Below are positions 1 to 51,507 of a DNA stretch of 64,000 nucleotides, in pieces (the first letter of the stretch is position 1; each line of letters opens with the position of its first letter). Both the position numbers and the translations under genes were made by a program. Location: the NCBI GenBank assembly GCA_023898565.1, contig CP060228.1, positions 776,930 to 840,929 on the forward strand. Reading direction: 5' to 3'. This DNA is from Candidatus Nomurabacteria bacterium (lineage in GTDB: Bacteria > Patescibacteriota > Minisyncoccia > Phycocordibacterales > UBA918). The notes under the pieces are model-generated. The model saw only the letters and a list, made by a program, of their open reading frames with translations. It made no database searches and was not told where the DNA came from.

Positions 1-3000
1 ACGCAGAGGATGATTTTGCTTTGCAGACATATTTCCCGAAAGGAGTCGGTGAAGTGAAGAGCCTGGAGGTGTTTAACCAAAACAAAGAACGTGATGCAGT
101 AATTCCTGAATACCATCCCTACGTCTACCACTGTGAAGCCGGCTGGGAGTATGCTGGTGAGTTTGCTCCAGGAACACTACAAGACCTTTCCAAGCAACTT
201 TCAGTTGAATTGCCTACTATGCCAAGTGCACCAGGAGACGCTTCAAGCACTTCTTCGTCCACCAGTGATGCTGTGAGTGAGATACCAACCGAAGCAGTAG
301 CCACTAGCTCTTCTTTTGATGAAGTTGTTGATGCTGAGGCGACAGACTTGTCGACTTCATCAGTGCTCGATATTCTGCCAGAACCAACACCTGCGCCACT
401 TTTCCAAATGTCACTCCTTGCAGGTACAAATACATCAGAAGTGGCAACATCAACTGAGTTACGTGCCTCTTCGGCTGAGGATGATTTTCTTACCGCGGGG
501 TATGCGTGTCGCGAGTCTGGACTCGTGCGTCAGTGTGATGAGCTTGATGGAGGTAACACGTCTTGCCGTGTGAATCGAGTAAAGGTAGCCGACCATGAAA
601 CAATCCAGTACGCACCAGGTTGGGACGCCGTCGCCACAAATGATGGAGTGATGCCAAAGCCAAACATGCTTCGACGCCTGGCTCAGTTCGTTGGTTTTGG
701 CCCGGATCGTAAAGATGTGCCTGATGAGTTTGAGGTTCGTCAGCACTCGGCCGACACCTATCATATCCGCCCGGGCGAAACAATGTACTTCAAGATGGAG
801 CTTGCATTCCCAGCCTTCTCAGAAGGTGAGTATTGGATTGAAGCGGTCGGCGATAGTGAGTATGGGTTGCTTGACCCGTTTTGGTCGTCTGATTGGAGCT
901 ACCGTATGCCGATTACGATCGATAATACAAACGGAACCACTGATCTCACTGAATACCAGGTATTCCTAGAACTCGATAATTCACTGACTGACTTCTGGAC
1001 AAACGTTCAGTCAGACGGTAGTGACATTCGCTTCGCGCAGCAACTTTCTGTCAATAACTTTAGTAATGCTGGCACAGCCAAGAACAACTGGTTTGATACT
1101 TCTTTCGGTGGACGTGTGCCGGTAACTATTCCGCCACTGACAGTCACTAGTGATCAACAAAATTTCCCGGTTTATGTAGACCTTTCACTTTTTGATGCTG
1201 GTTTCTGGAGTGCGGTGAAGACGGATGGTGGAGATATTCGTGTAACGACCAGTGATGGAACAGAGCTGCCGATTGATGTAGTTGAAATTGACACCACAGC
1301 AGAAACGGGTGAACTGCACTTCTTGGCAGATACTCTCGCTGCTAATGCTGCAAATACATTCTATGTGTATTACGACAAGCCAAGCGCCAGTGGGTATGCA
1401 GCTTCTGATCCGTTTGGATCAGAAGCAGTGTGGTCTGGTGCTGGGTACCAAGCGGTGTACCACTTTAGCGACGATCCAACCACAATTGGAAATACACTGA
1501 CCGACGAAACGGGTAATGGAAATAATTTGATTGTCACTACTTCTGCGCAAGCAACCACTACTGGTCAGATGGGTACAGCCTATGACTTCAATGGTTCGGC
1601 TGGGTATTTGTCAGCATCATCATGGACTTTTGATGGTGGTGATCCGCTTGTTACAACCGGTCTCTATAAAATGTCGTCTTCAGATAACTCTGCTATTTGG
1701 CAGTGGGGTACCGGTGCGCAGCCAGATGATATTGAGTTTCGCCCTTGGTATACGGGTGCAGACACAAATGGTTCAGGGCTTCACTATTTTGGAGCTACTG
1801 GCGGCGCGACATATTCGTTTGCTCGTGCTACGTCTTCATGGCATGCATTCGGGACAATCGGTACCACTTCTGCCTCAGACAATAACTTGGTGTACGAAGA
1901 TGGAGTGTTGGTTGAAACAGTTGCTCAAACAGTCGGTAATCCAACCAACACTGATGGTAATGGCTTTAGTGTTGGACGCACAGGCACGAATGGTTGGTGG
2001 GATGGATTGCTTGATGAGCTTCGTATTGCTACAACCACTCGTACTGAGGATCGAGTAAAATGGGAGACGGTCAACCTTTCTGAGCCGACTCACTTCTACG
2101 CCGTGAGCAGCTCTCAAGTGCCAGACAATGCTGCGAATCTCAACTGGTACAGTACTAGCTGGGAGCGGCGTGCGAAGTTCACAATTCCACAGGGGAAGGT
2201 TGAATCAAACCTGACTGATTTTCCTGTCTACGTTGATTTGGCAATGTTTGGCCCCGACTTCTTTGCTGCGGTACAAAATGATGGTGCTGATATCCGCGTT
2301 ACAACTGGCGATGGTGTTACTGAACTGCCGATTGAGTTGGTAGCAATCGACACTGGAGCGAAGACCGGTGAATTGTACTTTAAGACTGATTTATACCGCA
2401 ACGCAGCAAATGATTTTTATGTGTATTACCAAAACGAAGACGCCATTGCCTACGCTCGCACTAATACCTATGGATCAAATAATGTTTGGACCAATGGCTA
2501 CTTGGCGGTGTATCACTTAGAGGAGGATATGGCTGGCGTTAGCAATCTTAATGTCTATCAGGATTCAACTGCCAATCAGTATCATGGAGATGACTACAAC
2601 ACTTCAAATGACAAAACTGGTCTCTTTGGTAAGGGGCAGGAATTTGGTGATGATCAAAATGACTACTTGAGTCTTCCAAATACTGTCTTGGATGGCGTGG
2701 GAGATCTTACCACTTCATGGTGGATGTCTACGGTAAATGGTGGCGCGCAAGGTATCGTGTCTGGCGCAATGGACAATACGGGTGCCGGTGCCAATGAGTA
2801 TATTGTATGGTTTAACTCAAGCACAAATTTTCAGATTTATTATCAAAATGCAGCCGAGTCGTTTGGACTCTCTGATACAATCACAAACATTGATACTGGT
2901 AACTGGAACTACTTCGTGTCTACTGCAGAAGACGCTATCGATGAGGTTAATTTCTATGTAAATGGTGTTGGCGACACCGAAAACCCTGATCCTCAACCAA

Positions 3001-6000
3001 TTGCTCCACTTACGATTGCTAATGGAGGCTTGGTGGTAGGGCAGGAACAAGATGCACTCGGCGGCGGCTTCCAAACTACCCAAAACTTCGAAGGTCAGCT
3101 CGATGAACTGCGCTTTGCAGACGTGGTACGCGATGCTGATTGGGTAGCAACCGAATATGCCAACATGGGTGATGTGACTACCTTCATTGCCACTACTACG
3201 GCTGAAGAACTGAACATTACAGATTTTGTTGAACTTGATTTCTGGTTGCAGCACTTTGACAGTACTGCTGACGAGGCTGATATCTGGCTGCAGGTAGCAG
3301 ATCTTCCGGCGGGAGAAGAAACCGTTATCTACATGTATTACGGTGCGACCGGCGCGTCCTCAGCGAGCGATGAATTGGCTACCTTCTCTTACAGCACATC
3401 GACTGATTTGTACTATGTGGTTGATAATTCCGGCGCAACCAGTATTTCGGTACAGAGTTTGATTGATAATAATCAAGTATCAATTGATGGCGGCGCACCA
3501 GTTATCTTACACCAAGGTGAGCGAACCACCTTCGGTACCTTCACTGCTGCTTCAGTCATTAGTGCCCTTGGTCCAATTTCAGGGACGGTGACTGGATCTG
3601 GTAATGACGGCGGCGACACAATCGTGCCAGTTTCATTTGCCTCTACAACTATGGTAGTTCCAACCAATCGTGCCAACGAAAGTTGGTATCTATATTCGCC
3701 ATTTGCTTCTACCACAGTGCGTTCATACATAGCCAATAGTGGCACTGCAAACCAAACGATCAATATCGCGACCAGTAGCGCGGCTACCATCACGACTAAT
3801 CCTGGTACAAATCAGGGTGTGGTCTTTGAGTCAACGAGTCCAGTGCTGCTCACACAACGTAGTAATACGCCGGGTGACGGAGTGGTGGCATATCCGCCAA
3901 CCTTGCGTGACTTGTACGGTGTCTACTCAAACACTATTTACATTTCAACAGTCACTGACAATCCAAATCCACTGGTAACTTGTTCAGGTGGTGGTAGCGG
4001 AACTGTGTCTGGTATTACGAGAGGTGAGGCGCAATCTGAAACTGTTTGTAGCAATGGATCAGAAGGTGCGGGTAATGCGGTGCGATACCGCAGTCAAACA
4101 TATCCAATTGTTGCTATCCAACAGGCTGACTCCGATGGTAATGAAAGTACAGTGTTCTGGCCACAGCATGAATTTGGTACTCGTTATTACATGACAAATG
4201 ATTCAGCATACGCAGCAATTGTGTGTTCACCACGCTTTGGCGACGTGAACCTTGAAGTGCACGATACTGTTGGCGGTTTAGTTGAAAGCGCTACATGTTC
4301 CCCGGCCGGTAATAATCCAGGAAAAGCTTACTTCACTAATGGTACTGGTAATGGGGACTCGATAAACTTCACAGCAGGTCACGAAATTATTTCCACTAAC
4401 GGTAAACCATTCTACGTAATTTACGAAGATGTGGCGGTTGATCAGGACGAAAAGAATATTTTAGGCTCTGTGCAAGGGCGCAAATTTGATGGTGCTGCCG
4501 ATCGTGCTATAACGTTCGGCGCTGAAGAACCAGCCACTACAATTACATATGACGATAATCACGAGCAGCTTTCATATGCTTGGTACGAGAATACAACAAG
4601 CCAAACACCAACAGTGCGTTGGCCAATTGGTCCGACTGAAGATGCTGAAGAAGGTGTTGCGATTAGTGGTTCTGGTGCGGTTGATGAAGGTGATGTTCTC
4701 CGTCTGCGTCTCAATCTAGCAGTCAGTAGTGCAACCACTACAGCGCAGTCTTCAGCTTTCTCACTACAGTATGCAGCGGCGGCTGGCGTAGGTCAGTGTT
4801 CAGCGGCAGCCGGCTGGACAGATATTGGCGGTGTTGGCAGTACGACCGCGCTCTTTAGTGGGCATGATAACGCAGTGCTTGAAGATGGCACGACCTTGGC
4901 CTCAACCACACTCAGTCAAACAACCGTAGCTGGAACCTACGAAGAAAGAAATTACTCAGATTTCAATCCGTATGAAATCGGTGTTGGTGAAGTGGCAGAA
5001 TGGGATTGGGCTCTTGAAGTGGGTGCTGTCGATATTAATACCACCTACTGTTTCCGTATGATTCGTGCGACAGGAGAAGAGCTTACGACCTACACAGCAT
5101 ACCCAGAGCTTATTACTGTTGGTCCACCAAACGTGCCAACCAATTTAACCTACTTTGATAACGAGCACACAACAGACCTCACTCCTGTACTTGAATTTGT
5201 GGCGGTTGATTTAGCTGGTGATGATATTCAGTATCAGGTGCAAGTAGACGATGATCCTGCGTTCGCGAGTATTGATATTGATCGAAACTCAACTGATCAT
5301 TTTCTTAATTTTGAAAACGTTACCAATCCTCCTGACAAGGCGCCGTTTACTTCAGGCGATTTGATTCGCTTCACATCACCGACAGGGTTAGCTTCGAGTA
5401 CGACGTACTGGTGGCGTGTGCGTGCATCAGACCCAGATGGCTCAGCCACTACGAGTGACTGGTCTACCCCAACGAGCTTCACTACCAACCAAAATCTAGA
5501 GACGAGTGAGTGGTTCCAAACAACTGGCGCGCAGTTCGACACCAACTCTCTCAGCAGCCTTACTACTGCGGCTGGTTCGGTGAGTGTAAGCGGTATTTTG
5601 GGAACTATGGTAGGTACATCAGTAGATTTTGATGATGCAGTGGTTGGAAACGCCTGGGCTGAGGTGGACTGGAATGATACTGAAACATCAGGCGAAATTC
5701 GTGTACAAGTTGAGTATAAAAACGGTGGATCATGGCAACTTATTCCGGATTCGTTAATTCCTTCAAACTCAACCGGTATCAGTACTGCGCCGATTAATTT
5801 ACGAGAGCTTGATACTGATACATATAATGAGCTCCGCCTAGTAGCTACGTTTGACGGTAGTACATTGTCGCTACAGGACTGGACCATTCGCTGGGGCTTG
5901 CGCGTGGAGACGCCGGTTCTGGGTGATTTGTTCGATAATCAAAAAACAGTTGATACCTTGCCAATCTTTGATTTTATCTCTTCAGATCCACAAGGTGATG

Positions 6001-9000
6001 ATCTAGAATACGAAATTTCATTTAGTACGGACAAAACATTTGTCACCGGCAGTAGCACGTATAACTCTGGATCAGATGCCGGTTTTGCCAACCTTTCTAA
6101 TGGTGGTGACACCACTCCGTTTACTTCCGGTGATACGGTCACATACACCACACAGCCTGGCTCACCATTTACAAATGGTGTGACGTATTGGTGGCGTGCG
6201 CGTGCCAAGGACCCGAACGGTGATGATAGCTGGTCTCCGTGGTCACAACCGGATTCGTTCACCGTAGACACGGGCCTTTCGGTTTCGACGTGGTTCCAGA
6301 CCACGCGAGGTCAATTTGAAGAAGGTGAACTAACAGGAACCATCGCAACCACATCTGGTTCTGTGGTAGTAAATGATCTGGTGGGAGAGTACGGCAAGAC
6401 TACGGTGACTAACGGAACGTGGACCACGGTCAATCTCCAATCTGAATACAATACGCCAGTGGTGGTTGCGTCAGGACGCTATACGCCGCTCGGTGATACG
6501 CAGCGCTCAATTCGCGTTCGCAACAAAACAACTACTTCGTTTGAAGTCTTGGCCGACAATTTTGATTCGTCTGTGGGTGGTACCACGGTGGTGGATTACC
6601 TGGTAATGGAAGCTGGAGTATGGAATATCGATGATGGTGGTACTGGTACGCAAGTAATTGCCGGTACGTATGAAGATGTGTCAGATGTACAGGCAAATAC
6701 GTATGCTGCGGCTGGATACGGTGCTGATGTCACATTCTCACCAGCCTTCAGCAGTCCACCAGCAGTGATTGCGACGGTTTCTAGTGATAATGATTCAACC
6801 TGGGTGACCGCTCATTTAAATGATGGAAACACTCGAAATAATCCGCCGACTGCGTCTGCCATGGGCTTGTATCTTGGTCGTGGTTTTGAAAGTGCGGTAC
6901 ACGATCCTGAAGATATCGACTATATTGCATTCGAGACCGGCCATGGAGTCAATAATGGTGCCGAATTCGATGCTGATTTTAGTACTGACAATCACGACGA
7001 GCCTCCGGTGTCTGCTGAAGCATTTACCTCGGCTTTTTCTAGCGCGCCACAAGTGGTAATCGTGATGCAGGCAGCTGAACAGGGCGGCAATGGTGGATAC
7101 GCTGGTCTCTACGCAGCGACACCGCCAACTACTTCTAACTACTATCCATTTATCGATGAGGATGGTACCGGTGCCGACCGCAATCACACCACAGAGCCAG
7201 TTTTAACCTTGGCTTTTGAAGATGTTTCTGGTGTTTTGAAGCGCTACGCTGGCCCGGGCCTCTCAGGTACGATTGCTGGAGAAAACATTATCTTTAGTGA
7301 TGGTGCCGGACCGAAGTACGATAATTTCTCCTGGAATGACTCCACTCCTGGTGGTAGTGATATTTTGTATCAGATTGAATATGAAGTATCTCCAGGAGTG
7401 TATGCGCTAGTGCCAAACACTGCTATTCCAGGCAATAGCGCCGGAACCTCAACCAGTCCAATTGATCTCACCAGTGTTGATATTAATACGTATCCAGTGA
7501 TTCGACCGTTTGCAACACTTACCTGTTCGGGTGGCACCTGTCCACAAATTAACGACTGGCAGCTCGAGTGGAGCGAGGGGGTTAACATGTCTGGTACTCT
7601 TAAAGAGTATGACCGACTTACGGGGGTCGCTACTGGTACAATTCGTGTTGCGGTAGATGGCAGTATTATTCCAAGTACAGGCACCGTGTCTGGTGGTATC
7701 TGGTCAGTGGCCAACGTGACTGCTTTTGCGGGAGAAATAGTAACCGTGTGGGTCGATGGTGCAACTGAATCAGAAGAAGCAGTAGCCGCTTTTGTCTACG
7801 ATGGAACCGGCGACATCACTGGTGTTGAGCTGTTCGAGCAGCATCTCTCTATTTCGGCAGATGAAGAAGCAGTAGTGACAAACGCCTTGCTTGGACAGAA
7901 TGATAATCTTGCACTTGGTGACGAAGACATTTTCTATAACGTAGATGGTTCAAACAATCTGGTGGTTTGTAGTGCTGGTTCATGTTCTGATGCAAATATA
8001 TACGTAGGCCCAGGCAATACATATACACCAGCTTCTGCTGGCGGGGTGTCTGTGTCAACTCATGATGTTATTAACGATGGTTTCTTGGAGCTTGATACCA
8101 ATACCATCAACGTTTCAGGTTCTTGGACGAACAATGCCACTACATCGGTAGATACCTCGACCATAAATCTCACCGCAGCTACAGGCACCGAGTCTGTATA
8201 CAGCGGCGAGAATCCAATGCAGTTTTACAACCTTTCATTTGGTAGCGGTGCCGGAGAGGCCCTCTTTACACTTGCTGCCGGCCTTGATCTCGCGGGTAGT
8301 TTGACTGTGGCAAGTGGTACGCTCGATCGTAGCGATTATGCAATCTCAATTGCAGGTAATCTCACTACAGGAACAGGCGGATTTTGGCAGGGTACAGGCA
8401 CTACCACATTTGACGGCGCCGGTGCTAAGACCTGGCGTGATGACAATCTGCTCACGCAAAAAGTGGGTGATGTGCTTATTGATGGCGCATCAACCAATGT
8501 GACCGCTCTTACAAATGTTGCGGCGTACGACATCACTATTGGTGCCAATGACCGTTTGAATGGCACATCCGGAAAGGTGATTTATGTGGCAGGGGACTGG
8601 ATTAATAATGGTACCTTTACTGCTCAGTCAAGCCGAGTAGAAATCATTGAAGACGATCGCACGTACCCACCGGCGGTGCCTGGTTCTCAGAATTGGTATA
8701 GCGATAGCGCTTTTGATAAGCGTATTATGATCGCGGTTAATCCAGCTGAAGTATCTGCTGATTTGGTAAACTTCCCGCTGTATGTTGATCTCTCAACACT
8801 CGGCACTAATTTTTGGTCAGCTGTCGCAAGTAACGGTCGTGATATTCGCGTTACGAGTGGAGACGGCCAGACCGAGTTGCCACACGATCTTGTGTCGATT
8901 AACACGACTGCAAAAACAGGGGAGTTACACTTCTTGGCGGATGCGGTAGACAGTGCGACCACTACGTATTTCTTCGTGTACTTTGACAATCCAGCCGCTT

Positions 9001-15000: not shown

Positions 15001-18000
15001 TAAACGTTGGTCAGTTTGCATTGCGTCCGGCAGCGCTGTCAGTTGCAGACACCGTTGCTGATATGGATTTGTATCAGAACCGCGTGATTGTGCGCCACGA
15101 AGACATTAGCCCGCTTTCAATTGCTGATATGGCAATCTTTGATAACGATGACGCATTTGATCTACCATTTACCGCAACAATTGGAGCAACTGATTTGCTC
15201 ACGGTGCTTCCGGGAAGTGGACTGTTTGTGTGGTCAAACCGTACGTTTGCACCGGCGGGTGAAGTGATTCTGGCTGGTAGTGGTGCAACTGCAGCAGATG
15301 GGTCGCTCACTATTGGTGCCGGAGCAACGCTGCAAGCAAACGCAGCAGACGGTGTCACTATTGGTGGTTCACTACATCTTGCTTCTGGAGCAGTTTTCCA
15401 AGGAGCGACAAGTTTAATTGACTTCACGGCTACCAACGGCGGACAGACCATCACTTCAGCTGCTAGTTCCACTATTACGCTGCACGATGTTTCATTTACT
15501 GGCGTAGGCGGTGCATGGGCGGTGCAGACACCGCTAGTGTCTGAGACTGATATCCTTGTCTCCACGGGTACTGTTTCTGGCGTGGCAAACATTACTGTGA
15601 ATGACGGCTCGTTCTACGGCGACGGTACTGTTTCTCTGACTGGCGGTACAGCATTGCTCAAGAAAACTAATACTCTTGGGGGAGCTCGCGCGTGGACATT
15701 TAATAATCTTACGCTTGGTAGTGGTGGCGTGGCAGGCGTGACTACTCCGGCTTCATCAGCTACGACGACAGTACGAGGTGTACTCACGATTGCTTCAGCG
15801 CACTTCCTTGACGCGCTTGGTTCAACGTTTGATTTGCAAGGAAGCGGCAATGTGCTCGTTGAGAGTGGTACGCTGCTTGAGGGAACCAGTACCTTCCGCT
15901 ATAGCGGTCTGACACCAAATATTCTCCGCACTCCGTATTACAACCTTAAGATTGATACTGACAGTGGCCTCAGTGTTACCGCAAACGCACCAACGGTTGG
16001 TCTGCAGATTTTGGGCAACTTGACGGTGGGTGCAAGCGGCACATCAACGCTAAACGTGAACACCAATGACCCAGCTTTGGCTGTAACCAACAACGTTTAT
16101 ATTGGTACTAAAGGAACAGTCCTCGGTAGCAACTCCGCACTCTTTAGCGTTGCTGGCAGTTGGGACAATGATGGTGTCTTTACTGCAAATGGCGGATCGG
16201 TAGAGTTTGTGAAGACTGGCGGATCGGCAACTATCGCGGCAGGGAATTCGAGTTTTGGTACCGTCAGTATTGCAGGCACCGCGTCATACACTATGAGCGA
16301 GAGTGCTACTACAACCGGAAATCTAACGCTCAGCACCGGTTCATTCACATTGGCCGGCGGCTCAACGCTCGCGGTTGGTGGTATTTTCTCCAGCCAAATG
16401 AGTGATGCAGCTACCACATGGGCGGGCACAACGCTCAGTCTCTATGGCGGTCAGTCATACAACATCAATGCTAAGAATCGTTCTGAAACCTTTGACACAG
16501 TCGTTGTGTCAGGCAGTACACATCCTCGCGTATGGAACGCAACATCATCAGCTGTTGTTACTACCAGCGGTAGCTCACTTTACTCACGAAATCATTTGGG
16601 CGTGATTGGCGATCTATATATTTTTGGCGACTATGTAAATAGCAGCTTCGCTGATTACTGGAGTTATGCTGAAGATTTCGATGGAGCAGTGCTTGGCTCA
16701 CCTCGTACTGCCAATGTTTTGGTTGAAGACAATGGTTCTGTTTTATACACTGGCGGATCGCTTACTGTTGAGGGCGATGCAAGCGCATCAACCACTATTG
16801 CTTCACAGACCGGTGGTACCTATGACTTTACTATTGGCGGCTCCACTGATGTGTTGCTTGACCACTACGTAGTACGAGACACTACGAGCGCAGGTTTGGT
16901 GTTTACTGGTGTGCCAAGTGTGACAGATATTTCAAATGGCGATTTTGAAGTTGCGATTGCTGATGGAACAGCGATGACAGTGGGTGGAACAGTCATTAGT
17001 GCCAATCAGGCGATGAACTTTACCGGCATCCGTTTTGCTACAACTACAGCCATCAATGCATACAACGTAACTGCAACTGGTACGAGCGCAAGTGCATGGC
17101 GCTTTGTGAATGTAATTGGAAACCTTGATGGTGAAGCGAAGGATATAGATCCGGCAGGAGACCCAGGCTATGTTGTGTGGGAAGATTCAGCCGCGATTAT
17201 CAATATCTCAGGTACGGTCTACAGTGATGAAGGTGCCACGCCGATGGGCATCACTGTCTGTGACGGAATCACGAAGAGTATTGAACTAAGTATCGCTGGA
17301 CTCACATTCGCGTCTACCACTTGTGGAATTGGTACAGGTGCGTACACCTTCACTGGTATCAGCTATGGTCTTAGCGATACGCTTACGGTGTACATCAATG
17401 GTGAGGCTGAAAAGGCAGTGACTGTCACACAGGATCCTGTGTCATCTATCAGCGGTCTTGATTTGTATCAAAATCGCGTGATCGTGCGTCATCAGAGTGG
17501 CGCGCCACTTACTATTGCTGACATGGCGGCGTGGGATAGTGATGACGATCCTGATGTGCTCTTTGATGCAGAAACAACTGGCACTGATACGCTTGTATTA
17601 CCAGCTGACACCAAGCTAATCGTGTGGACTGGTCGTACGTTTGCGCCAAATGGTGACGTGACCGTTTCGGGCGGTGGCGCGGGCGCTTCATTTGATGGCA
17701 CGCTTGAGCTCCAGACTGGCGCAACGTTTACCGCTGCAAATGGTGAAACGCATACCATCGGTGGTAGCTTGATTGCGGGTGCTGGTGCACTCTTTACTCC
17801 AGCGCAGTCATCAATCGTGTTCACTACCGATGATGCCGGTCGGACTATCGATACAAATAACGCTGGTTTTTACAACCTTTCACTTACTGGAAGCGGCGAC
17901 TGGACAGTGACCGACACAACCCTTACGGTCGCTAATGATTATCTGCAAAATGCTGGAGCGGTAACACTGCCGACAGCTACCACAACGATTGGTGGTGCAA

Positions 18001-21000
18001 TGACTGTTTCTGGCGGTACGTTTGATGCCAATGGAGGACTCCTCTATTTCACTGCTGCCGACGCCGGCAACAATGTTTCATTTGGGGGATCAGATGTGGC
18101 AACAGTCCGCTTCAATGGCGCAGGTGGTTCGTGGATCATGAGTGATACTAATGCTACCGCCACTGACTCATTCACCGTTAGCGCAGGTACTGTAACACTG
18201 CCGACAGGTAATTTGGTAGTCGGTTCAGATTTTGTGGTAACCGGGGCAGTAAATCACTCAAATGGCACCGTTGTCTTGACCGCGTCTGATGCCGGCAATC
18301 TCATTACGCTTTCAGGTAGTAGCTTGTACAGCTTGGACCTTACTGGTACGGGGGACTACACCATGACAGACGCTAGCGCCGCTGCGCTCGGTAGTGTCAT
18401 TGTGACTAATGGTGAGTTGATTGCGCCGTCAGCAACCCTTTCGATCGGCGGCTCATTTGATGCAACTGGCGGCGTGTTTACGCACAGTTCAGGCACCGTT
18501 CTCTTCAACTCAGCTGATACTGGAGAATTTGTCGATCCGGGTGCAAATGATTTCTACAATGTCATCTTTGGTAGCGCTGCTGGTGGTTGGACGCTCTTTA
18601 GTGCAACAACGACTCGAAATTTTGCTCTCTCTAGTGCAAACAGCTTCACGCTAGCTTCTGGTGAAAGTCTGACGGTCGAAGGAGTGTTTTCAAACGCAGT
18701 TGGTGGCACGGCTACGACATGGGCAAATACACAGCTCATTCTAAACAGCGGTACTGAGTATGAAATCGGTGCCAAGACCGTGGCGACAGAGTTGTATGAA
18801 AACCTTCAGATTGGAGCAAACACAGACGTAAGCATGTGGAATTCAAGTGCCGTCGCAGTCACTGTTTCTCCGACTGGTTCTCTCTATTCACAAGATCATG
18901 CAGCGGTTAACGGTAGCTTGTACATTTACGGTGATTACCATGTGGCAACTACCACTGAGTACTGGAGCTACGCGACTGACTTTGATGGTGCTGCGCTTGG
19001 CGGTTCGCCGCGAGCGGCAACTGTTGCAATCTCCAGTGGTTCAACAGTGCACGTTGACGGCGGAGTCCTTCGTTTGCTTGGAAATGCTGCCGGAACTACG
19101 ACCGTGTCCAATCAAGGATCAGGTACGTTTGATTTCAAGGTAAAGAACGGCACCTTCAATGCAAGCTCTTATTCGTTCCGCAATCTGTCGGCGCTCGGCT
19201 TACAGTTTACTGGTAACGCGAGTGTACCGTCGCTCAGTTATGGAGACTTTGAGCAAGCGGCTGACAGTACGGTGTTGATTAGCTTGGCATCTACAACACT
19301 AAACGCCAATGCCTCTTTGCTCGTCACAAATACTCGCTTTGCTACTGGTGGCTTTGTAAGCGGTGCAAACGTTTCACTCGACGCCACAACTACCAATAGC
19401 TGGCGCTTCACTGGCGCCACTGGCAATCTCTGGGGTGAGGCGTTCGATGTTGACGGCTCTGATGATTGTAGTTCGGTGCGTTGGGACGACAGCCAGTGTT
19501 TGCTCACTGAGCAATCAGCCTACCGCTGGCGTAATGATGATGGTGGAGAAGGAGCGCCGGCCGGTACTTGGTTTGATTCCAGCTGGACAGATCGAAAGCG
19601 CATCCGAGTCGTAAATGATGACGCCAGCTCGTATGCCGACGTTGCTGTGAAGGTTCCGGTTGATTTTGAGGCTAATATGCAGACAAGCTTTGATGACCTT
19701 CGCTTCACTGATGCGAGCGGTACAACGACACTTTCGTACTGGATTGAAACATACAATACAGGTAGTGATGCGCTCGTGTGGGTAAAGGTACCTAGCTTAG
19801 CTGCTGCAGCCGTAACTGAAATCTATATGTATTACGGTAATGGTGCCGCATCATCACTGAGCGACCCAAGCAACGTGTTTACTGTAGCCGAAGACTTCGA
19901 AGACAATAATATTACTGAGTATTCTGGTGACATTACAAAGTTTGCTACTGCCGGTACCTATGCCTACGGTGGTGGTTATGGTCTTGATGCGTCACCAAAT
20001 CAGAGCGCAAAAGCAACTGACGGCATTGCTCGAACTGACCTCACCGTTGCACAAGGACAAATCATTCGCTACATGCAATACGTCGACACGACCGCGGGTA
20101 GTGGTGATGAAGTGTGTACACTCTTTGCGGTGCAGAGCCCGGTCACCGCAAATCAAAACTACGCCGTGTGTCTGGAGCAGTTTGGTACTGATCGTGTATC
20201 TTTGGTTAAAAATGCAGAAAACACAGACTCTACTGGTACTCTGCTTTCTTCAAAGAACATGACACTGAGCACGGGTTGGTATGAAGTGATGATTGATTGG
20301 CAGACCAATAACGATATCGACGTGTCTGTTTTCAACAGCTCGGGCGCCCTGCAGGCTACCACTTCAGCTACAGATAGTACGTACTCTTCTGGAGGTATCG
20401 GCTTCACGTTCTGGTTCCAGCACGGTGGCTGGGATAGCTACGTGTCATGGCCGCGCACTGCAACGCAGCCAACTGTGTACGTGGGTGCTGAACAGCAGCA
20501 AGGGGGTGCAACCTGGGCAGCGCCACAAGATACGTCAGTTGGCGGCTTTAACTTCGGTGAAACAGCACGCTTGCGCGTTGGTATCAATAACACGGGGCTA
20601 CCAATTGAAAGTCAACAATTCCGTCTAGAATTTGCGCCAAAACTAACTGCACCTAGTTGTGAAGCGGTATCTGGGGGATCATTTACTGCAGTACCAGTAG
20701 CTGCAAGTTGCGGTAGCTCGGCGGTGTGTATGGCTGCTTCCGCCAGTACCACCAACGCTGATCCAACCACTGATCATTTGGTGATTGACGCAGGCAACTT
20801 CCTGCCTGGTGAAATGGTGGTTGAGACAAGTAATCAATCAACTCCATTTGACGTTGACCAAAACCGTTACACCGAGCTTGAGTACGCAATTGCCCTCACA
20901 ATAAACGCAACGAGTGATTCGTACTGCTTCCGTGTTACCGACGGCGGCTCAGCGCTTGACTCATACGCCATCATGCCAGAACTTACCCTGGCGTTTGACC

Positions 21001-21773
21001 CACAGCTTGGCAGTATCAATCTTAATGACGGAGCAGATATCGTGCTTACTCCGGGAACGACGACTACTATCATGGCGTCTACTACGGTCACTGACTACAA
21101 CGGATATGGCGATTTGTTTGCGGCCACGACAACCTTCTACAAGAGCACTGTCTCAGCTGCTTGTACACCAGACAATAACAATTGTTACGTAGCTAGCGGT
21201 GCAGCTTGTTCGTTTACGAACTGTTCTGGCGCTACCTGTACGCTCACCTGTAGCGCGGATTTTGAATTCCATGCTGATGCGACCGATAATGACGGTGGGC
21301 AATTCTGGTATGCTTTTATGGAGGTCTCTGATCAGGGTGGTGCAACTGACTTTGACACATCACTTGGTGTGGACGTACTGACTATTCGTGCGCTCGAGGT
21401 TTTGAATAGCATCAACTATGGTTCAATTGGTATTAACGAAAATACTGGTACCTATAACCCGACAGTGACTATTGAAAACTTTGGAAACGAAGCGATTGAC
21501 GTGCAAGTAGCGGGAACCAGTATGACTGATGGTGCCGCTTCTACCATTCCTGCCTCACAGCAACGCTTCGCTACTTCAACGTTTGATTACGATGTGTGTA
21601 CTGAGTGTCAGACGCTTTCAGAATTGGGCACCAATCTAGAAGTTGATCTCTCAAAACCAACCACGACAACACCAGCAACTACGGATGAGATTTATTGGGG
21701 CATTGAAGTGCCGTTTGGTATCGCAAGTAACCCGCACAACGGCGTAAACACCTTCACGGCGATTTCAGATTAA
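1..21773 (+). CDS. Giant secreted/surface protein (>7,250 aa), 5'-truncated at the window edge. It contains repeated DUF2341-like and LamG units, FN3 domains, CarboxypepD_reg-like domains, beta-helix-like repeats and a conserved C-terminal domain
   Basis: The open frame runs 21.7 kb without a stop and continues upstream of nt 1. The motif 'NFPVYVDLS...DG.DIRVT..DG.TELP.E...ID....TGELHF' recurs, and LamG-type 'LDELRFATTTRS' follows each copy. 'YWWRVRA.DP.G' indicates FN3 domains. G/T/S-rich repeats resemble a parallel beta-helix. Coding status is near certain; the domain names are recalled from memory and not verified by search. Confidence 0.9.
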   Translation, partial: AEDDFALQTYFPKGVGEVKSLEVFNQNKERDAVIPEYHPYVYHCEAGWEYAGEFAPGTLQDLSKQLSVELPTMPSAPGDASSTSSSTSDAVSEIPTEAVATSSSFDEVVDAEATDLSTSSVLDILPEPTPAPLFQMSLLAGTNTSEVATSTELRASSAEDDFLTAGYACRESGLVRQCDELDGGNTSCRVNRVKVADHETIQYAPGWDAVATNDGVMPKPNMLRRLAQFVGFGPDRKDVPDEFEVRQHSADTYHIRPGETMYFKMELAFPAFSEGEYWIEAVGDSEYGLLDPFWSSDWSYRMPITIDNTNGTTDLTEYQVFLELDNSLTDFWTNVQSDGSDIRFAQQLSVNNFSNAGTAKNNWFDTSFGGRVPVTIPPLTVTSDQQNFPVYVDLSLFDAGFWSAVKTDGGDIRVTTSDGTELPIDVVEIDTTAETGELHFLADTLAANAANTFYVYYDKPSASGYAASDPFGSEAVWSGAGYQAVYHFSDDPTTIGNTLTDETGNGNNLIVTTSAQATTTGQMGTAYDFNGSAGYLSASSWTFDGGDPLVTTGLYKMSSSDNSAIWQWGTGAQPDDIEFRPWYTGADTNGSGLHYFGATGGATYSFARATSSWHAFGTIGTTSASDNNLVYEDGVLVETVAQTVGNPTNTDGNGFSVGRTGTNGWWDGLLDELRIATTTRTEDRVKWETVNLSEPTHFYAVSSSQVPDNAANLNWYSTSWERRAKFTIPQGKVESNLTDFPVYVDLAMFGPDFFAAVQNDGADIRVTTGDGVTELPIELVAIDTGAKTGELYFKTDLYRNAANDFYVYYQNEDAIAYARTNTYGSNNVWTNGYLAVYHLEEDMAGVSNLNVYQDSTANQYHGDDYNTSNDKTGLFGKGQEFGDDQNDYLSLPNTVLDGVGDLTTSWWMSTVNGGAQGIVSGAMDNTGAGANEYIVWFNSSTNFQIYYQNAAESFGLSDTITNIDTGNWNYFVSTAEDAIDEVNFYVNGVGDTENPDPQPIAPLTIANGGLVVGQEQDALGGGFQTTQNFEGQLDELRFADVVRDADWVATEYANMGDVTTFIATTTAEELNITDFVELDFWLQHFDSTADEADIWLQVADLPAGEETVIYMYYGATGASSASDELATFSYSTSTDLYYVVDNSGATSISVQSLIDNNQVSIDGGAPVILHQGERTTFGTFTAASVISALGPISGTVTGSGNDGGDTIVPVSFASTTMVVPTNRANESWYLYSPFASTTVRSYIANSGTANQTINIATSSAATITTNPGTNQGVVFESTSPVLLTQRSNTPGDGVVAYPPTLRDLYGVYSNTIYISTVTDNPNPLVTCSGGGSGTVSGITRGEAQSETVCSNGSEGAGNAVRYRSQTYPIVAIQQADSDGNESTVFWPQHEFGTRYYMTNDSAYAAIVCSPRFGDVNLEVHDTVGGLVESATCSPAGNNPGKAYFTNGTGNGDSINFTAGHEIISTNGKPFYVIYEDVAVDQDEKNILGSVQGRKFDGAADRAITFGAEEPATTITYDDNHEQLSYAWYENTTSQTPTVRWPIGPTEDAEEGVAISGSGAVDEGDVLRLRLNLAVSSATTTAQSSAFSLQYAAAAGVGQCSAAAGWTDIGGVGSTTALFSGHDNAVLEDGTTLASTTLSQTTVAGTYEERNYSDFNPYEIGVGEVAEWDWALEVGAVDINTTYCFRMIRATGEELTTYTAYPELITVGPPNVPTNLTYFDNEHTTDLTPVLEFVAVDLAGDDIQYQVQVDDDPAFASIDIDRNSTDHFLNFENVTNPPDKAPFTSGDLIRFTSPTGLASSTTYWWRVRASDPDGSATTSDWSTPTSFTTNQNLETSEWFQTTGAQFDTNSLSSLTTAAGSVSVSGILGTMVGTSVDFDDAVVGNAWAEVDWNDTETSGEIRVQVEYKNGGSWQLIPDSLIPSNSTGISTAPINLRELDTDTYNELRLVATFDGSTLSLQDWTIRWGLRVETPVLGDLFDNQKTVDTLPIFDFISSDPQGDDLEYEISFSTDKTFVTGSSTYNSGSDAGFANLSNGGDTTPFTSGDTVTYTTQPGSPFTNGVTYWWRARAKDPNGDDSWSPWSQPDSFTVDTGLSVSTWFQTTRGQFEEGELTGTIATTSGSVVVNDLVGEYGKTTVTNGTWTTVNLQSEYNTPVVVASGRYTPLGDTQRSIRVRNKTTTSFEVLADNFDSSVGGTTVVDYLVMEAGVWNIDDGGTGTQVIAGTYEDVSDVQANTYAAAGYGADVTFSPAFSSPPAVIATVSSDNDSTWVTAHLNDGNTRNNPPTASAMGLYLGRGFESAVHDPEDIDYIAFETGHGVNNGAEFDADFSTDNHDEPPVSAEAFTSAFSSAPQVVIVMQAAEQGGNGGYAGLYAATPPTTSNYYPFIDEDGTGADRNHTTEPVLTLAFEDVSGVLKRYAGPGLSGTIAGENIIFSDGAGPKYDNFSWNDSTPGGSDILYQIEYEVSPGVYALVPNTAIPGNSAGTSTSPIDLTSVDINTYPVIRPFATLTCSGGTCPQINDWQLEWSEGVNMSGTLKEYDRLTGVATGTIRVAVDGSIIPSTGTVSGGIWSVANVTAFAGEIVTVWVDGATESEEAVAAFVYDGTGDITGVELFEQHLSISADEEAVVTNALLGQNDNLALGDEDIFYNVDGSNNLVVCSAGSCSDANIYVGPGNTYTPASAGGVSVSTHDVINDGFLELDTNTINVSGSWTNNATTSVDTSTINLTAATGTESVYSGENPMQFYNLSFGSGAGEALFTLAAGLDLAGSLTVASGTLDRSDYAISIAGNLTTGTGGFWQGTGTTTFDGAGAKTWRDDNLLTQKVGDVLIDGASTNVTALTNVAAYDITIGANDRLNGTSGKVIYVAGDWINNGTFTAQSSRVEIIEDDRTYPPAVPGSQNWYSDSAFDKRIMIAVNPAEVSADLVNFPLYVDLSTLGTNFWSAVASNGRDIRVTSGDGQTELPHDLVSINTTAKTGELHFLADAVDSATTTYFFVYFDNPAASAYYPTDTYGSQAVWAEYEAVYHFSDSSVAVDSYALDATANERHLLIEGAALATSTGRLGQGINLIGSTGILRNAGFTWTAGNPLVTSGWYKMPASSNESLWQWGTGASPDNLEFRPWYNTTGGLHYFGVTSGATYTLTPRDTVNWLHFTTVGATTTGQDNLVYQNAIEVERVTQTVANPYNDAATGLQVGRNGTGGSLQAQIDEFRITTSPRSAGWVQAEYSNQKTPKIFYATTSVQTYTPDLVLDEATHNIKMGGSTFYDLTIDDATTSAAFIDTAVTVSRNFVVVNGDVTLPTTRLTVGGSFTNTGYFQHNNAEVRFTSNSPASITLNGTEFYNSFYNVTFSGNGTFTFLDTNATTTNDMSITKGTVVFPSGKLTIGGHLSVTGTGIFNANNGTVEFISEDNESITTRGSSFNNVVFGVNEGGDGWYSADWSERAAIRVASTSVAGYIANFPVYVDLSMLGASFWGGVATDGRDIRVTSADGKTELPVEIAEISYGAQTGELHFLAPALSPISDTTFYIYFDNTDATEPDAASQYGSEAVWAEYEAVYHFNGDPVEGVADVSGNGRDLAPTVGTPSTTAGVLGTALDTTSSNVMLEDADWTWTAGEDLVSSGLYFMTGFDTGALWEFGSSCATDDCLAFMPWYDNATRGYHRFGETSGNDYNFTRDNSKWHHFTTNGRATNGEAVRIFEDGILRGSYLQTGTGENPSQTGLQIGRYVTNTYMDIDIDELRFATTTRSQQWIVTEYNNLTDVDTFYSTSTESYLDVVSSFTLNEALTDVHGDVTIYYADLVAPTNNFTIGGSALNVGGSYNPNNATTTFDSTDAGETVAFGDGAFYNLSFNGAGGGWTIATTTVLNNASLVTGADFTLAPNTTMSVAGTFQNSFNSAATTWTGSTLVLTGGDYTVTDRLDSGDTYAKLVVSGDSDLVMWNSSASTSTVLDTSSLYMPAFAGTPGLLRIYGAYERTAGTEHWSYDTDFDGTDLTGGGERPATVEIGRGSSIYLATSTTLSVQGAAGATTTVSAISGIYSLNVNAGTADIAYASFQNVGPKGLYLTNGTVLSSLTATEFSIAGGRSGITVDAATVNAQPSTEYTNVTFGTSSANSVYEPAWTDQVVITLQSSVIPGDLSNYPVYVDLSTLGSSFWSGVQSDGRDIRVTTDNGTKLPIDLVEIDASAQTGELHFLASSISSNNDTSFYIHFGNPAATAYAADDTYGANAVWTDYEAVYHFNEDPTVQITDMTGNGRNLYATVGTPATTTGLIGTALDTTASNVRLENVGWTWQAGDDLVSSGLYFMSGNDTGALWQFGTGNGADNGTYLSFMPWYNTATRGYNRFGVTSGSDYDFARNSTIWHHFTTNGRATAGESIDIYEDNLLQDSVTQLGSSENPTNTGLRIGAYQSTTYMDIDVDELRFSTDPRSIDWIDVEYRNFTDPTSLYATSTALTDSFNVSVIGVPTTFWLFSAGTGNRYGEAFDNDDGDPGSIQWDDSNFSITISGVVYNDDGTTPATAPLCNASTEVVTVVLDGVDTYTAACDPRDGSFEVTGIVYTGEPEIVTYISSSAATPQTNVAIYDETTGTGTVSGGVMTVARPNVIDGSVLVLIAGKDDDPTIMAAGGWTQIDVLGNTTGDQIDTGAWYRVVADAGTEAATYDFPADNGEGYSYWMGTLINVDTSTPIDVASTWSKLQNQYDPAAPSITTVTDGALVLGAWYTYRDTEMITPVYGWSDRGKNIVGPETNNLSVSSKSMLTQGATGAATTSGIISSRETHVAQFAFRPASAPTATSSIVAAAVTKTPLGNTGLPYDTITLRDQTSAYGTAAAAANIVVTRPEIENGDVMVLIVGKEDDFNITPPAGWVLGDERIEATGNDMYTAIWYRVVGNAGAEPSTYDFVNNDTTTEEYSYWIGSFSGVDTNNVFDVTPAWSNLQNDSSPAAPAVTTASDGAYVLATWYVIDDGAMDMPGSPWITLAQDVVTNNRLLAVAGRYMATNGNTGAAVMTGGSTDDVNVGQFALRPAALSVADTVADMDLYQNRVIVRHEDISPLSIADMAIFDNDDAFDLPFTATIGATDLLTVLPGSGLFVWSNRTFAPAGEVILAGSGATAADGSLTIGAGATLQANAADGVTIGGSLHLASGAVFQGATSLIDFTATNGGQTITSAASSTITLHDVSFTGVGGAWAVQTPLVSETDILVSTGTVSGVANITVNDGSFYGDGTVSLTGGTALLKKTNTLGGARAWTFNNLTLGSGGVAGVTTPASSATTTVRGVLTIASAHFLDALGSTFDLQGSGNVLVESGTLLEGTSTFRYSGLTPNILRTPYYNLKIDTDSGLSVTANAPTVGLQILGNLTVGASGTSTLNVNTNDPALAVTNNVYIGTKGTVLGSNSALFSVAGSWDNDGVFTANGGSVEFVKTGGSATIAAGNSSFGTVSIAGTASYTMSESATTTGNLTLSTGSFTLAGGSTLAVGGIFSSQMSDAATTWAGTTLSLYGGQSYNINAKNRSETFDTVVVSGSTHPRVWNATSSAVVTTSGSSLYSRNHLGVIGDLYIFGDYVNSSFADYWSYAEDFDGAVLGSPRTANVLVEDNGSVLYTGGSLTVEGDASASTTIASQTGGTYDFTIGGSTDVLLDHYVVRDTTSAGLVFTGVPSVTDISNGDFEVAIADGTAMTVGGTVISANQAMNFTGIRFATTTAINAYNVTATGTSASAWRFVNVIGNLDGEAKDIDPAGDPGYVVWEDSAAIINISGTVYSDEGATPMGITVCDGITKSIELSIAGLTFASTTCGIGTGAYTFTGISYGLSDTLTVYINGEAEKAVTVTQDPVSSISGLDLYQNRVIVRHQSGAPLTIADMAAWDSDDDPDVLFDAETTGTDTLVLPADTKLIVWTGRTFAPNGDVTVSGGGAGASFDGTLELQTGATFTAANGETHTIGGSLIAGAGALFTPAQSSIVFTTDDAGRTIDTNNAGFYNLSLTGSGDWTVTDTTLTVANDYLQNAGAVTLPTATTTIGGAMTVSGGTFDANGGLLYFTAADAGNNVSFGGSDVATVRFNGAGGSWIMSDTNATATDSFTVSAGTVTLPTGNLVVGSDFVVTGAVNHSNGTVVLTASDAGNLITLSGSSLYSLDLTGTGDYTMTDASAAALGSVIVTNGELIAPSATLSIGGSFDATGGVFTHSSGTVLFNSADTGEFVDPGANDFYNVIFGSAAGGWTLFSATTTRNFALSSANSFTLASGESLTVEGVFSNAVGGTATTWANTQLILNSGTEYEIGAKTVATELYENLQIGANTDVSMWNSSAVAVTVSPTGSLYSQDHAAVNGSLYIYGDYHVATTTEYWSYATDFDGAALGGSPRAATVAISSGSTVHVDGGVLRLLGNAAGTTTVSNQGSGTFDFKVKNGTFNASSYSFRNLSALGLQFTGNASVPSLSYGDFEQAADSTVLISLASTTLNANASLLVTNTRFATGGFVSGANVSLDATTTNSWRFTGATGNLWGEAFDVDGSDDCSSVRWDDSQCLLTEQSAYRWRNDDGGEGAPAGTWFDSSWTDRKRIRVVNDDASSYADVAVKVPVDFEANMQTSFDDLRFTDASGTTTLSYWIETYNTGSDALVWVKVPSLAAAAVTEIYMYYGNGAASSLSDPSNVFTVAEDFEDNNITEYSGDITKFATAGTYAYGGGYGLDASPNQSAKATDGIARTDLTVAQGQIIRYMQYVDTTAGSGDEVCTLFAVQSPVTANQNYAVCLEQFGTDRVSLVKNAENTDSTGTLLSSKNMTLSTGWYEVMIDWQTNNDIDVSVFNSSGALQATTSATDSTYSSGGIGFTFWFQHGGWDSYVSWPRTATQPTVYVGAEQQQGGATWAAPQDTSVGGFNFGETARLRVGINNTGLPIESQQFRLEFAPKLTAPSCEAVSGGSFTAVPVAASCGSSAVCMAASASTTNADPTTDHLVIDAGNFLPGEMVVETSNQSTPFDVDQNRYTELEYAIALTINATSDSYCFRVTDGGSALDSYAIMPELTLAFDPQLGSINLNDGADIVLTPGTTTTIMASTTVTDYNGYGDLFAATTTFYKSTVSAACTPDNNNCYVASGAACSFTNCSGATCTLTCSADFEFHADATDNDGGQFWYAFMEVSDQGGATDFDTSLGVDVLTIRALEVLNSINYGSIGINENTGTYNPTVTIENFGNEAIDVQVAGTSMTDGAASTIPASQQRFATSTFDYDVCTECQTLSELGTNLEVDLSKPTTTTPATTDEIYWGIEVPFGIASNPHNGVNTFTAISD
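8770..13290 (+). repeat. Three tandem intragenic repeat units of about 1.6 to 2.0 kb (DUF2341-like plus LamG-like) inside the giant gene, with near-identical DNA stretches
   Basis: Units begin at about 8770, 10357 and 12390 (NFPLYVDLSTLG / NFPVYVDLSMLG / NYPVYVDLSTLG). The DNA around 9030 and 10615 is nearly identical ('gctgtctgggcggagtatgaagcggtgtatcacttta'). Confidence 0.8.
15062..17850 (+). repeat. Dispersed intragenic duplicate of about 400 nt ('DLYQNRVIVRH...RTFAP.G.V') at about 15062-15460 and about 17458-17850
   Basis: The peptide blocks DMDLYQNRVIVRHEDISPLSIADMA and GLDLYQNRVIVRHQSGAPLTIADMA are colinear for about 130 aa. Confidence 0.7.
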
Positions 21774-23349: not shown

Positions 23350-23350
23350 A

Positions 23351-23382
23351 AAGAGTTGGGGATACCCCAACTCTTTCTTTTG
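23351..23382 (+). terminator. Rho-independent terminator after the FN3 gene
   Basis: A perfect hairpin AAAGAGTTGGGG-ATA-CCCCAACTCTTT is followed by CTTTTG. Confidence 0.7.
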
Positions 23383-23405
23383 CCGAAGAGTGCCATAATA
23401 GTGCT

Positions 23406-24728: not shown

Positions 24729-24730
24729 TT

Positions 24731-27964: not shown

Positions 27965-28005
27965 AGCAACAGCCACTGTTATCCAGCAGTGGCTGTTGCT
28001 TTTTA
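27965..28005 (+). terminator. Rho-independent terminator
   Basis: The 13-bp perfect stem GCAACAGCCACTG / CAGTGGCTGTTGC has loop TTATCCAG and is followed by TTTTT. Confidence 0.8.
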
Positions 28006-28037
28006 GGTACTTTTTATCGATAATATGTAGCATACAC

Positions 28038-30103: not shown

Positions 30104-30430
30104 CACCTGCCTTGCGGCAGGTTTTGCCGTTTTTATAAACTCATGAATGAATGTGTGAAATTATGCATTTCAGAAATAAAATTTTGTGAATAAACTAATT
30201 TTTAAAAAAACTCTTGCGGTAAAATTAAGTTGTACTTGCAAAGGAGGTAATCAATTAGCATTACTGCTTGTATCACATACGAGGGCACTTCAGCCGAGTG
30301 TTACTTTGTAGGTATGCTTACAGTGTATTTTGTTGTAGTCGGAGTGGAGACCGTACTACACGCATGGGTTTTTGCCCATCTGTTTTTACACCACAAAAAC
30401 AGGCTGTGAGTCTAATACAACGTAGAGTAT
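30104..30430 (+). promoter_or_regulatory. AT-rich upstream region of 327 nt (putative promoter plus long 5' leader) with an orphan strong Shine-Dalgarno sequence (AAGGAGGT at 30241-30248) that is not followed by a start codon
   Basis: It is very AT-rich (tttttaaaaaaa, taaaat). The SD-like element lies about 180 nt upstream of the ATG at 30431. The -10-like TAGAGT sits 3 nt before the ATG. Confidence 0.35.
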
Positions 30431-31588: not shown

Positions 31589-31620
31589 TAAAATTGGCTT
31601 CAAGCTTGGAGTTAACAAAC

Positions 31621-31657
31621 AAAAAACCCTATCTCCCACCACGAGAAGGGTTTTTTG
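31621..31657 (+). terminator. Rho-independent (potentially bidirectional) terminator
   Basis: AAAAAACCCT pairs perfectly with AGGGTTTTTT around a 16-nt loop. An A-tract lies upstream and a T-tract downstream. Confidence 0.8.
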
Positions 31658-31707
31658 CTTGTGTACAGAGCGGATTATTTGTAAATGAGGTTGCTATACT
31701 GTGTGTA

Positions 31708-35226: not shown

Positions 35227-35234
35227 ACTGGAGT

Positions 35235-47954: not shown

Positions 47955-48030
47955 CTTTACACTAACTAAAAAGTTTGTCATGATATAAAAGGGCAAGAGG
48001 CCAACCTGCGATTACTCTCAATATACTGAG

Positions 48031-48062: not shown

Positions 48063-48075
48063 CAACAAGCAATCT

Positions 48076-51504: not shown

Positions 51505-51507
51505 ATT

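Follow-up and report, generated by a model that had tools for sequence, protein, structure and literature searches.

What is encoded by the open reading frame (ORF) that fills the first third of a 64,000-nt stretch of Candidatus Nomurabacteria bacterium contig CP060228.1 (hereafter the window), and what might a protein of such size do for the cell? Our analysis establishes that nt 3-21773 are one intact, real gene and not a collapsed repeat; by sequence comparison its product belongs to a conserved family of collinear giants in Paceibacteria (Patescibacteria/CPR), and it is probably a secreted surface fibre or adhesin that presents binding cassettes. In particular, frame 3 is open from nt 3 to a stop codon at 21771-21773 on the + strand, which carries every large ORF of the window and to which all window coordinates below refer, and it comprises 7,256 sense codons followed by a single, terminal stop. 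In the remaining five frames, ORFs of this region reach no more than 172-196 aa, the GC content of the giant-gene stretch is even (47-50%, about 48%), and we estimate the probability of a chance open frame of 7,256 codons at this GC content to be near e^-330. The window begins inside the open frame, so that its edge cuts off the 5′ end and the gene extends upstream. An earlier note on this DNA had described a single uninterrupted giant ORF occupying a third of the window and continuing upstream; the open frame and a set of gapless metagenome assemblies agree in bearing this out.

Those assemblies were identified through the fibronectin type III (FN3) protein encoded immediately downstream, the exact sequence of which is present on 19 public contigs. 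The six longest contigs, assembled independently from six samples, match window positions 11778-33349 with 99.7-99.9% identity and 0 gaps. Among the six assemblies there are 72 variable sites, 62 of them in the giant gene (50 synonymous and 12 nonsynonymous), a synonymous excess indicating that the gene is translated and under purifying selection. Internal DNA repeats extend over at most 127 nt, with 61-71% identity, and short stretches reach no more than 83%, and a search of the giant gene for tandem repeats and long direct repeats revealed none, and thus no signal of phase variation or repeat collapse; since the repeats are short and diverged and tandem repeats are absent, repeat collapse is unlikely. 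The alternative that the ORF is an assembly artefact, comprising collapsed or chimeric repeats, or a decaying pseudogene, could appeal to two observations: every matching short-read contig ends within the giant gene (the longest contains an uninterrupted partial ORF of 5,353 codons), and assemblies that are long-read or of low coverage have homologues broken up into many ORFs. However, the 7,256 stop-free codons, the gapless agreement of six assemblies, the absence of long or near-identical DNA repeats, the collinearity with intact orthologues of 7,000-7,700 aa, and selection at the protein level together largely refute this alternative already and leave it almost no probability.

The density of strain single-nucleotide polymorphisms (SNPs) is ~7-fold higher in the giant gene (62 sites per 10 kb) than in the downstream 11.5 kb (10 sites). 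The giant-gene SNPs, scored against the sequences L001-L006, are mostly synonymous and are densest at 12-16 kb of the window. Their high density may be a reason why short-read contigs break in the gene, and older alleles or recombination may be its source.

Comparison with a 7,440-aa orthologue (P0134) reveals the family to which the protein belongs. Specifically, 200-aa chunks of the giant protein map monotonically onto the orthologue over the whole length with 33-75% identity, with exceptions that are paralogous cassette cross-matches, and the window protein has one cassette more than the orthologue. The collinear order across species points to a conserved orthologous family; "mosaic", the word used in the earlier note, is therefore wrong and misleading. 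Orthologues of 7,036-7,696 aa start with a signal peptide, followed in the full-length ones by a conserved domain having the motif TVHIFP..EGW. N-terminal fragments of orthologues, 43-52% identical to the window protein, have 520-585 extra residues upstream of window residue 1, from which we infer that the complete protein comprises ~7,780-7,840 aa; nt 3-21773 are the 3′ ~93% of a gene of ~7,800 codons. For the missing 5′ end, an exact-match scan of metagenome contigs of the Joint Genome Institute (JGI) returned nothing, and a protein scan returned only orthologues with 44% identity.

The nearest named relatives are from Ca. Kaiserbacteria, Nomurabacteria, Parcubacteria, and Paceibacterota, and more distant relatives are from Giovannonibacteria, Dojkabacteria, Shapirobacteria, and Magasanikbacteria. 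Closed relatives, from activated sludge, have genomes of 0.99-1.05 Mb, in line with the earlier assignment of this DNA to a reduced-genome bacterium. Dozens of full-length relatives are already present in public data. In L007, L008, L010, and L012, which are long-read or low-coverage assemblies, the orthologous giant gene is broken into between 3 and more than 20 ORFs; closed genome CP064968.1 is among these cases, with pieces of 5,626, 994, and 467 aa. Indel errors are most likely the cause of the splitting of homologues in such assemblies; public annotations of the family are thus systematically fragmented.

The domain organization is described here with amino acid n of the window protein corresponding to nt 3n to 3n+2, so that the 7,256-codon ORF and its stop span 3-21773. 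The N-proximal region (aa 1-290; 3-872), defined by orthologue comparison, is conserved and contains invariant Cys, Trp, and Gly residues. Next come a single DUF2341-like unit (aa 291-350; 873-1052), detected by a hidden Markov model (HMM) built from the internal cassettes (E 7e-11), the DUF2341+LamG cassettes 1 (aa 359-708; 1077-2126) and 2 (aa 711-1071; 2133-3215), and a solo DUF2341 (3231-3422; best Pfam stretch aa 1077-1129). A beta-rich region (aa 1141-1715; 3423-5147), in which residues 1510-1734 resemble aa 1509-1731 of a 2,063-aa protein encoded farther downstream, leads into two FN3-like Ig_Rha78A_N domains (aa 1718-1867 and 1977-2128; 5154-6386), identified by self-BLAST and Pfam and having a spacer domain between them. 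Cassettes 3 (aa 2894-3242; 8682-9728), 4 (aa 3425-3766; 10275-11300), and 5 (aa 4101-4443; 12303-13331) are interspersed with two tracts that are beta-helix-like by similarity to a modelled helix: a G/T/S-rich tract (aa 3243-3424; 9729-10274) and a second tract (aa 3767-4100; 11301-12302). C-terminal to the cassettes are a tandem pair of ~220-aa domains defined by self-BLAST (aa 4562-4778 and 4798-5015; 13686-15047), a further beta-helix-like tract recognized by its similarity to the modelled tract (aa 5016-5668; 15048-17006), the predicted right-handed beta-helix itself (17454-19502), a DUF2341 with a Pfam score of 78.7 bits (aa 6563-6637; 19689-19913), immunoglobulin (Ig)-like units that are also repeated within the 2,063-aa neighbour (aa 6828-7022; 20484-21068), and a C-terminal module comprising two Ig-like beta-sandwiches and a Cys-rich insert (aa 6990-7256; 20970-21770).

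The cassettes are the most clearly assigned elements. Self-BLAST and the HMM built from the copies define five full DUF2341+LamG cassettes, mutually 24-61% identical in protein, which on these comparisons are old paralogues; the earlier count of at least five clear copies was correct, the number being exactly five, with HMM scores above the cut-offs for DUF2341, Laminin_G_3, and Pentaxin. Specifically, DUF2341 (PF10102) scores 88.7 and 88.0 bits against a cut-off of 23.4, and is detected by Pfam in six stretches and by the internal HMM in two more. In cassette 2, Laminin_G_3 (PF13385) scores 49 bits (cut-off 27.6) and Pentaxin (PF00354) 39.7-42.7 bits (cut-off 25), both at aa 883-1052; the LamG of cassette 1 scores 22 bits, under the cut-off, and those of cassettes 3-5 are assigned through their 24-47% identity to cassettes 1 and 2. 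Cassettes 1 and 4 are each detected by self-BLAST, Pfam, and the internal HMM, and cassette 3 by self-BLAST and the internal HMM, while cassette 5 is 61% identical to cassette 4 and is the one absent from the 7,440-aa orthologue. Searches of protein sequences in the PDB, using single sequences and profiles of the N- and C-terminal regions, revealed pentraxin similarity in cassette 2 only.

Three further domain assignments of the earlier note fared differently. The FN3 domains stand as FN3-like domains, since Ig_Rha78A_N matches twice at 45 bits (cut-off 27.4), but canonical fn3 (PF00041) has no match at E<=0.1 in the giant protein and none in its orthologues. The carboxypeptidase-regulatory-like domains are not supported: CarboxypepD_reg (PF13620) has no match in the giant protein (E<=0.1) or in 30 orthologous fragments, and the candidate stretch is modelled at a predicted local distance difference test (pLDDT) score of only ~55. 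The beta-helix is likewise not seen by HMM, with Beta_helix (PF13229 and related) giving no match in the giant protein or in the 30 orthologous fragments, but it is seen in the predicted three-dimensional fold. The AlphaFold2 (AF2) model of aa 5669-6520 has a mean pLDDT of 82, exceeding 90 for aa 5818-6238 and declining to ~aa 6500, and shows a regular solenoid with 3-4-residue strands, a predicted right-handed parallel beta-helix of the pectate-lyase-like type. An NCBIfam search of the giant protein returned noise only. The tandem ~220-aa domain (aa 4562-5015) has no Pfam, NCBIfam, or PDB-sequence match; it carries the motifs GWT.., W-Y-R-V-V, and Y-D-F, and is present in some orthologues (P0134 and P0136) and absent from others (P0128, P0155, and P0159).

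The C-terminal module is the second region with a confidently predicted fold. Its model, with a pLDDT of 95.5, shows two Ig-like sandwiches resembling adhesin extender domains. A profile of the module scores 490 bits over aa 6925-7256 of the giant protein and matches 2,570 cluster representatives, 930 of them at E<=1e-30; in all relatives listed, the module lies at the extreme C-terminus. Module-bearing proteins range from ~300 to ~7,700 aa, and 28 of the 150 best matches have at least 5,000 aa, the largest having 7,696, 7,622, 7,456, and 7,440 aa. The earlier note had the giant protein ending in a ~150-aa domain shared with three other proteins of the locus. This is right for one of the three, the protein encoded at 26058-27941, which shares the full module (profile E 1e-64); the domain is larger, ~260 aa, and the other two do not carry it. 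The 2,063-aa protein (37992-44183) shares only the Ig-like unit upstream of the module, and the protein encoded at 30431-31588 shares nothing significant with the giant protein, having instead a different C-terminal domain in common with the 2,063-aa protein.

How might such a protein leave the cell and remain on it? The 7,256-aa partial product, read here as acidic and disulfide-containing, has a mass of 765 kDa and an isoelectric point of 4.05, is rich in T, G, A, and S, and contains 36 Cys residues, mostly in close pairs. Because the orthologues begin with cleavable-looking signal peptides (..VFA|Q, VYA|E, and VNA|Q), the giant protein is likely to be exported by Sec. It has no transmembrane (TM) segment, with no hydrophobic window above 1.6 on the Kyte-Doolittle scale; no C-terminal LPXTG sorting signal, the sole LPxT[GAN] match being internal (aa 5054) and the C-terminus reading ...NTFTAISD; and no dockerin (PF00404) HMM match or motif in its 7,256 aa, dockerin and cohesin being present in neighbouring proteins only. 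The type I secretion route of RTX/LapA-type proteins finds no counterpart, as there is no RTX match and the adjoining ATP-binding cassette (ABC) transporter is of the MacB/LolCDE/FtsEX type, with a MacB_PCD+FtsX permease. Nor does the protein resemble an autotransporter or a two-partner secretion (TPS) exoprotein: the C-terminus is two Ig-like sandwiches, no barrel or TPS domains were found among the window proteins, and N-terminal orthologue fragments match PF10102 and PF13385 only.

These results bear directly on the alternative that the protein is a contact-dependent toxin-delivery filament like FhaB or CdiA, carrying an effector. A long exoprotein with a beta-helix would suit such a filament, and FhaB-type domains occur in other giant Patescibacteria proteins (PMC11809585). 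However, the C-terminus is a conserved Ig-like module rather than a variable toxin, no pretoxin motif or immunity gene is seen, Pfam detects no TPS or haemagglutinin domains, no TpsB partner was found, and the relatives are monoderm-type; no catalytic or toxin domain was detected in the giant protein. We regard a toxin filament as very improbable.

The genes downstream of the giant gene form a conserved arrangement. The FN3-repeat protein, which has an N-terminal hydrophobic segment (21778-23349), starts 4 nt from the stop of the giant gene, a position kept in relatives, and its gene overlaps that of the ATPase of a MacB/LolCDE/FtsEX-type (type VII) ABC transporter (23325-25945), comprising the ATPase (23325-24728) and, 2 nt after it, the MacB_PCD+FtsX permease (24731-25945). 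NCBIfam places the pair in the MacB/LolCDE/FtsEX group, with no equivalog threshold reached; the ATPase has a ~200-aa C-terminal extension beyond its ABC domain. After these come a 627-aa protein with an N-terminal TM anchor, which is the paralogue bearing the C-terminal module of the giant protein (26058-27941), and a protein of 332 aa (27996-28994) that carries a signal peptide, is TM-anchored at its C-terminus, and is kept beside module proteins. Besides the window, 18 species-level genomes show the order giant, FN3 protein, ATPase, MacB permease, module paralogue. Across species, the ABC ATPase and permease are 71-88% identical (permease 76-88%), versus ~50% for the giant protein. At loci in Dojkabacteria, Shapirobacteria, Magasanikbacteria, and isolate DTUPAT2, the module paralogue and the anchored protein come immediately after a long ORF; the distant loci have no ABC transporter, and the anchored protein there ends in SH3b.

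Taken with the domain anatomy, this arrangement suggests how the giant protein may work. We propose a long extracellular fibre in which right-handed beta-helix rods would provide rigidity and Ig/FN3-like domains would act as spacers. The fibre would present at least five DUF2341+LamG cassettes, of the concanavalin A (ConA)-like lectin fold, which could attach to glycans or proteins of a host cell or of a particle. The fibre would be retained on the surface of the producer through the conserved two-Ig module at its C-terminus, a proposal made because the module is shared with the membrane-anchored paralogue encoded three genes downstream. The module probably docks into an envelope complex of co-conserved operon partners, which may include the FN3 protein, the MacB-type ABC transporter, the TM- or SH3b-anchored protein, and the neighbouring cohesin and dockerin proteins. 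MacB, LolCDE, and FtsEX transporters act on extracytoplasmic complexes, and the type VII transporter of this operon might do the same. A role in host or particle attachment, as raised in the earlier note, is plausible from the domain content.

The same lectin-fold and helical domains could be read instead as a surface-tethered array that degrades polysaccharides or cell walls, in which the beta-helices would be lyases or glycosidases and the ConA-like domains glucanases or carbohydrate-binding modules, feeding on or attacking a host. This reading we consider improbable.

A housekeeping envelope structure is a stronger competitor, if still an unlikely one. The protein might be a wall-spanning scaffold, an S-layer-like coat, or a sheath fibre that organizes an ultrasmall cell and binds no host. 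Collinear architecture with domain order kept across species, strict synteny with very conserved genes such as that of the MacB permease, purifying selection at the strain level, partners anchored by TM, SH3b, or LytR_C cell-wall-associated domains, and cohesin/dockerin scaffold genes on both sides would all be expected of such a structure. Against it, it is binding proteins that typically have multiple lectin-fold cassettes and beta-helices of the adhesin type, the number of cassettes differs among orthologues, and a single copy of a ~7,800-aa fibre would be an odd building block for a lattice.

Four points weigh against the adhesive fibre that we favour. First, ~50% identity, kept domain order, and purifying selection fit a housekeeping envelope structure equally well as, or better than, a host-specific adhesin. 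Second, roughly half of the sequence is without a match in Pfam, NCBIfam, or the PDB sequences and could hide a cryptic enzyme. Third, the absence of the ABC transporter at the distant loci indicates that the transporter is not obligatory for module proteins. Fourth, the true N-terminus lies outside the window.

Comparison with known systems places the adhesive-fibre proposal among precedents that resemble it in part. In the study of Patescibacterium danicum, 149 proteins longer than 4,000 aa were counted among 2.1 million NCBI Patescibacteria proteins, and 82 of the 149 contain FhaB and/or DUF2341, with adhesion proposed; that study found no full-length homologues of its proteins and proposed rapid domain reshuffling (PMC11809585). 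The protein described here shares with those giants the phylum, size class, DUF2341, beta-helix (FhaB-like) tracts, and a putative role in adhesion or host interaction; in contrast, its family is collinear, has a defined C-terminal module, and belongs to a conserved operon that also encodes an ABC transporter of the MacB type, and it has no Pfam FhaB or haemagglutinin match. For large DUF2341 proteins that archaea encode in their type IV pilus loci, a role as PilY1-like tip adhesins has been proposed (Makarova et al. 2016, PMC4858521). These too are large secreted proteins having DUF2341 and a proposed adhesive role, but the giant protein is ~10-fold larger, its orthologues have Sec-type rather than class III signal peptides, and the 64-kb window contains no genes for pilin, PilB/PilT, or prepilin peptidase. 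A TadE/G-like match on the protein encoded at 26058-27941 was rejected as a sign of a pilus, being under the cut-off (E 0.0037) and confined to the hydrophobic N-terminal segment.

Beta-helix passengers of autotransporter or TPS systems, adhesins and toxins alike (VacA p55, Hap, EtpA, Fap2, pertactin, and Ag43), have only 8-14% sequence identity to the giant protein; in its case there is no C-terminal beta-barrel, TPS domain, or outer membrane, and the helices are interspersed with lectin cassettes. Giant1-5 of Apilactobacillus kunkeei are extracellular proteins of 3,000-8,000 aa; the likeness, one of size and location in an unrelated lineage, is that a monoderm living with a host devotes several percent of its small genome to very large extracellular proteins (PMC12863079). 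A limited literature search found no paper on the collinearity, the C-terminal module, or the operon of this family.

In Firmicute WxL/Csc clusters, large and small secreted proteins share a C-terminal domain and are encoded beside a membrane- or wall-anchored protein, and the window contains two parallel sets that are similar to these by analogy only. Set A comprises the giant gene, 26058-27941 (which carries the C-terminal module of the giant protein), and 27996-28994 (TM-anchored). Set B comprises 37992-44183 (the 2,063-aa protein), 30431-31588, and the paralogous anchored proteins 44196-45212 and 45151-46881 (LytR_C); its common C-terminal domain, present in the 2,063-aa protein and in that encoded at 30431-31588, has ~190 aa and ends in ..YTA.L.Y...PVF. 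Identity with the WxL system itself was considered and rejected: the C-termini of four candidate proteins give no match to the WxL domain (PF13731) even at E<=10, and one of 10 anchor-family members has a sub-threshold WxLIP_PGBD match (E 9.6e-4).

An idea that we hold tentatively, and consider rather unlikely, is that the two-Ig module is a lineage-specific surface-display tag of an undescribed sorting or anchoring system, with the giant fibre as its main cargo and as host tether. The N-terminally anchored module paralogue and the TM- or SH3b-anchored protein would then capture or position module proteins on the envelope, and in Paceibacteria the FN3 protein and the type VII (MacB-like) mechanotransducing ABC transporter would also be partners. 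Such a system would be analogous to the WxL/Csc clusters or to the C-terminal domains of the type IX secretion system. The possible role of the module and its partner genes in surface display is the one thread worth following.

Patescibacteria presumably live attached to other cells, yet, to our knowledge, contact molecules are known for only a few Saccharibacteria. From the genome sizes of relatives we estimate that the giant gene accounts for roughly 2% of a ~1-Mb genome. Kept intact, collinear, and under purifying selection in many Paceibacteria, it is a prime candidate for an attachment or envelope fibre of this uncultured class. The advance is incremental, since giant DUF2341/beta-helix proteins of the phylum have been reported before and many full-length homologues are public; the definition of the family, its C-terminal module, and its conserved operon give experiments, and the annotation of thousands of fragmentary metagenome "hypothetical proteins", something concrete to start from.

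The remaining features of the window and of related loci are as follows. A promoter/terminator scan scored no better than shuffled sequence. A phage origin for the giant gene was considered and is unlikely, the sole match being that of a cassette to a phage "capsid protein" at 25% identity, with no phage match for the C-terminal module. Three relatives have HSP20 and then a cohesin-protein gene immediately 5′ of the giant gene, and in one of the three, L039, a dockerin-protein gene was seen ahead of the HSP20 (upstream regions with cohesin/dockerin proteins: L007 726-2150, L008 903-2378, and L039 1326-5501). In the window, cohesin and dockerin proteins are encoded at 28997-35978, including a cohesin-like protein with a C-terminal TM anchor (31594-32778) as well as a protein that combines cohesin with dockerin (35235-35978); the neighbourhood looks like a cellulosome-style assembly network with no glycoside hydrolases in view. 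Just upstream of the gene for the 2,063-aa surface protein, 36096-37949 encodes a 617-aa protein with weak matches to beta-propeller/TolB-like repeats (NCBIfam E 5e-8 to 1e-4, far under the cut-offs). Housekeeping genes are located at 47391-62889: those for a thiol peroxidase-like protein, an AI-2E transporter, PGA_cap, FKBP, tRNA-guanine transglycosylase, UvrB, UvrA, and a histidine kinase/response regulator pair.

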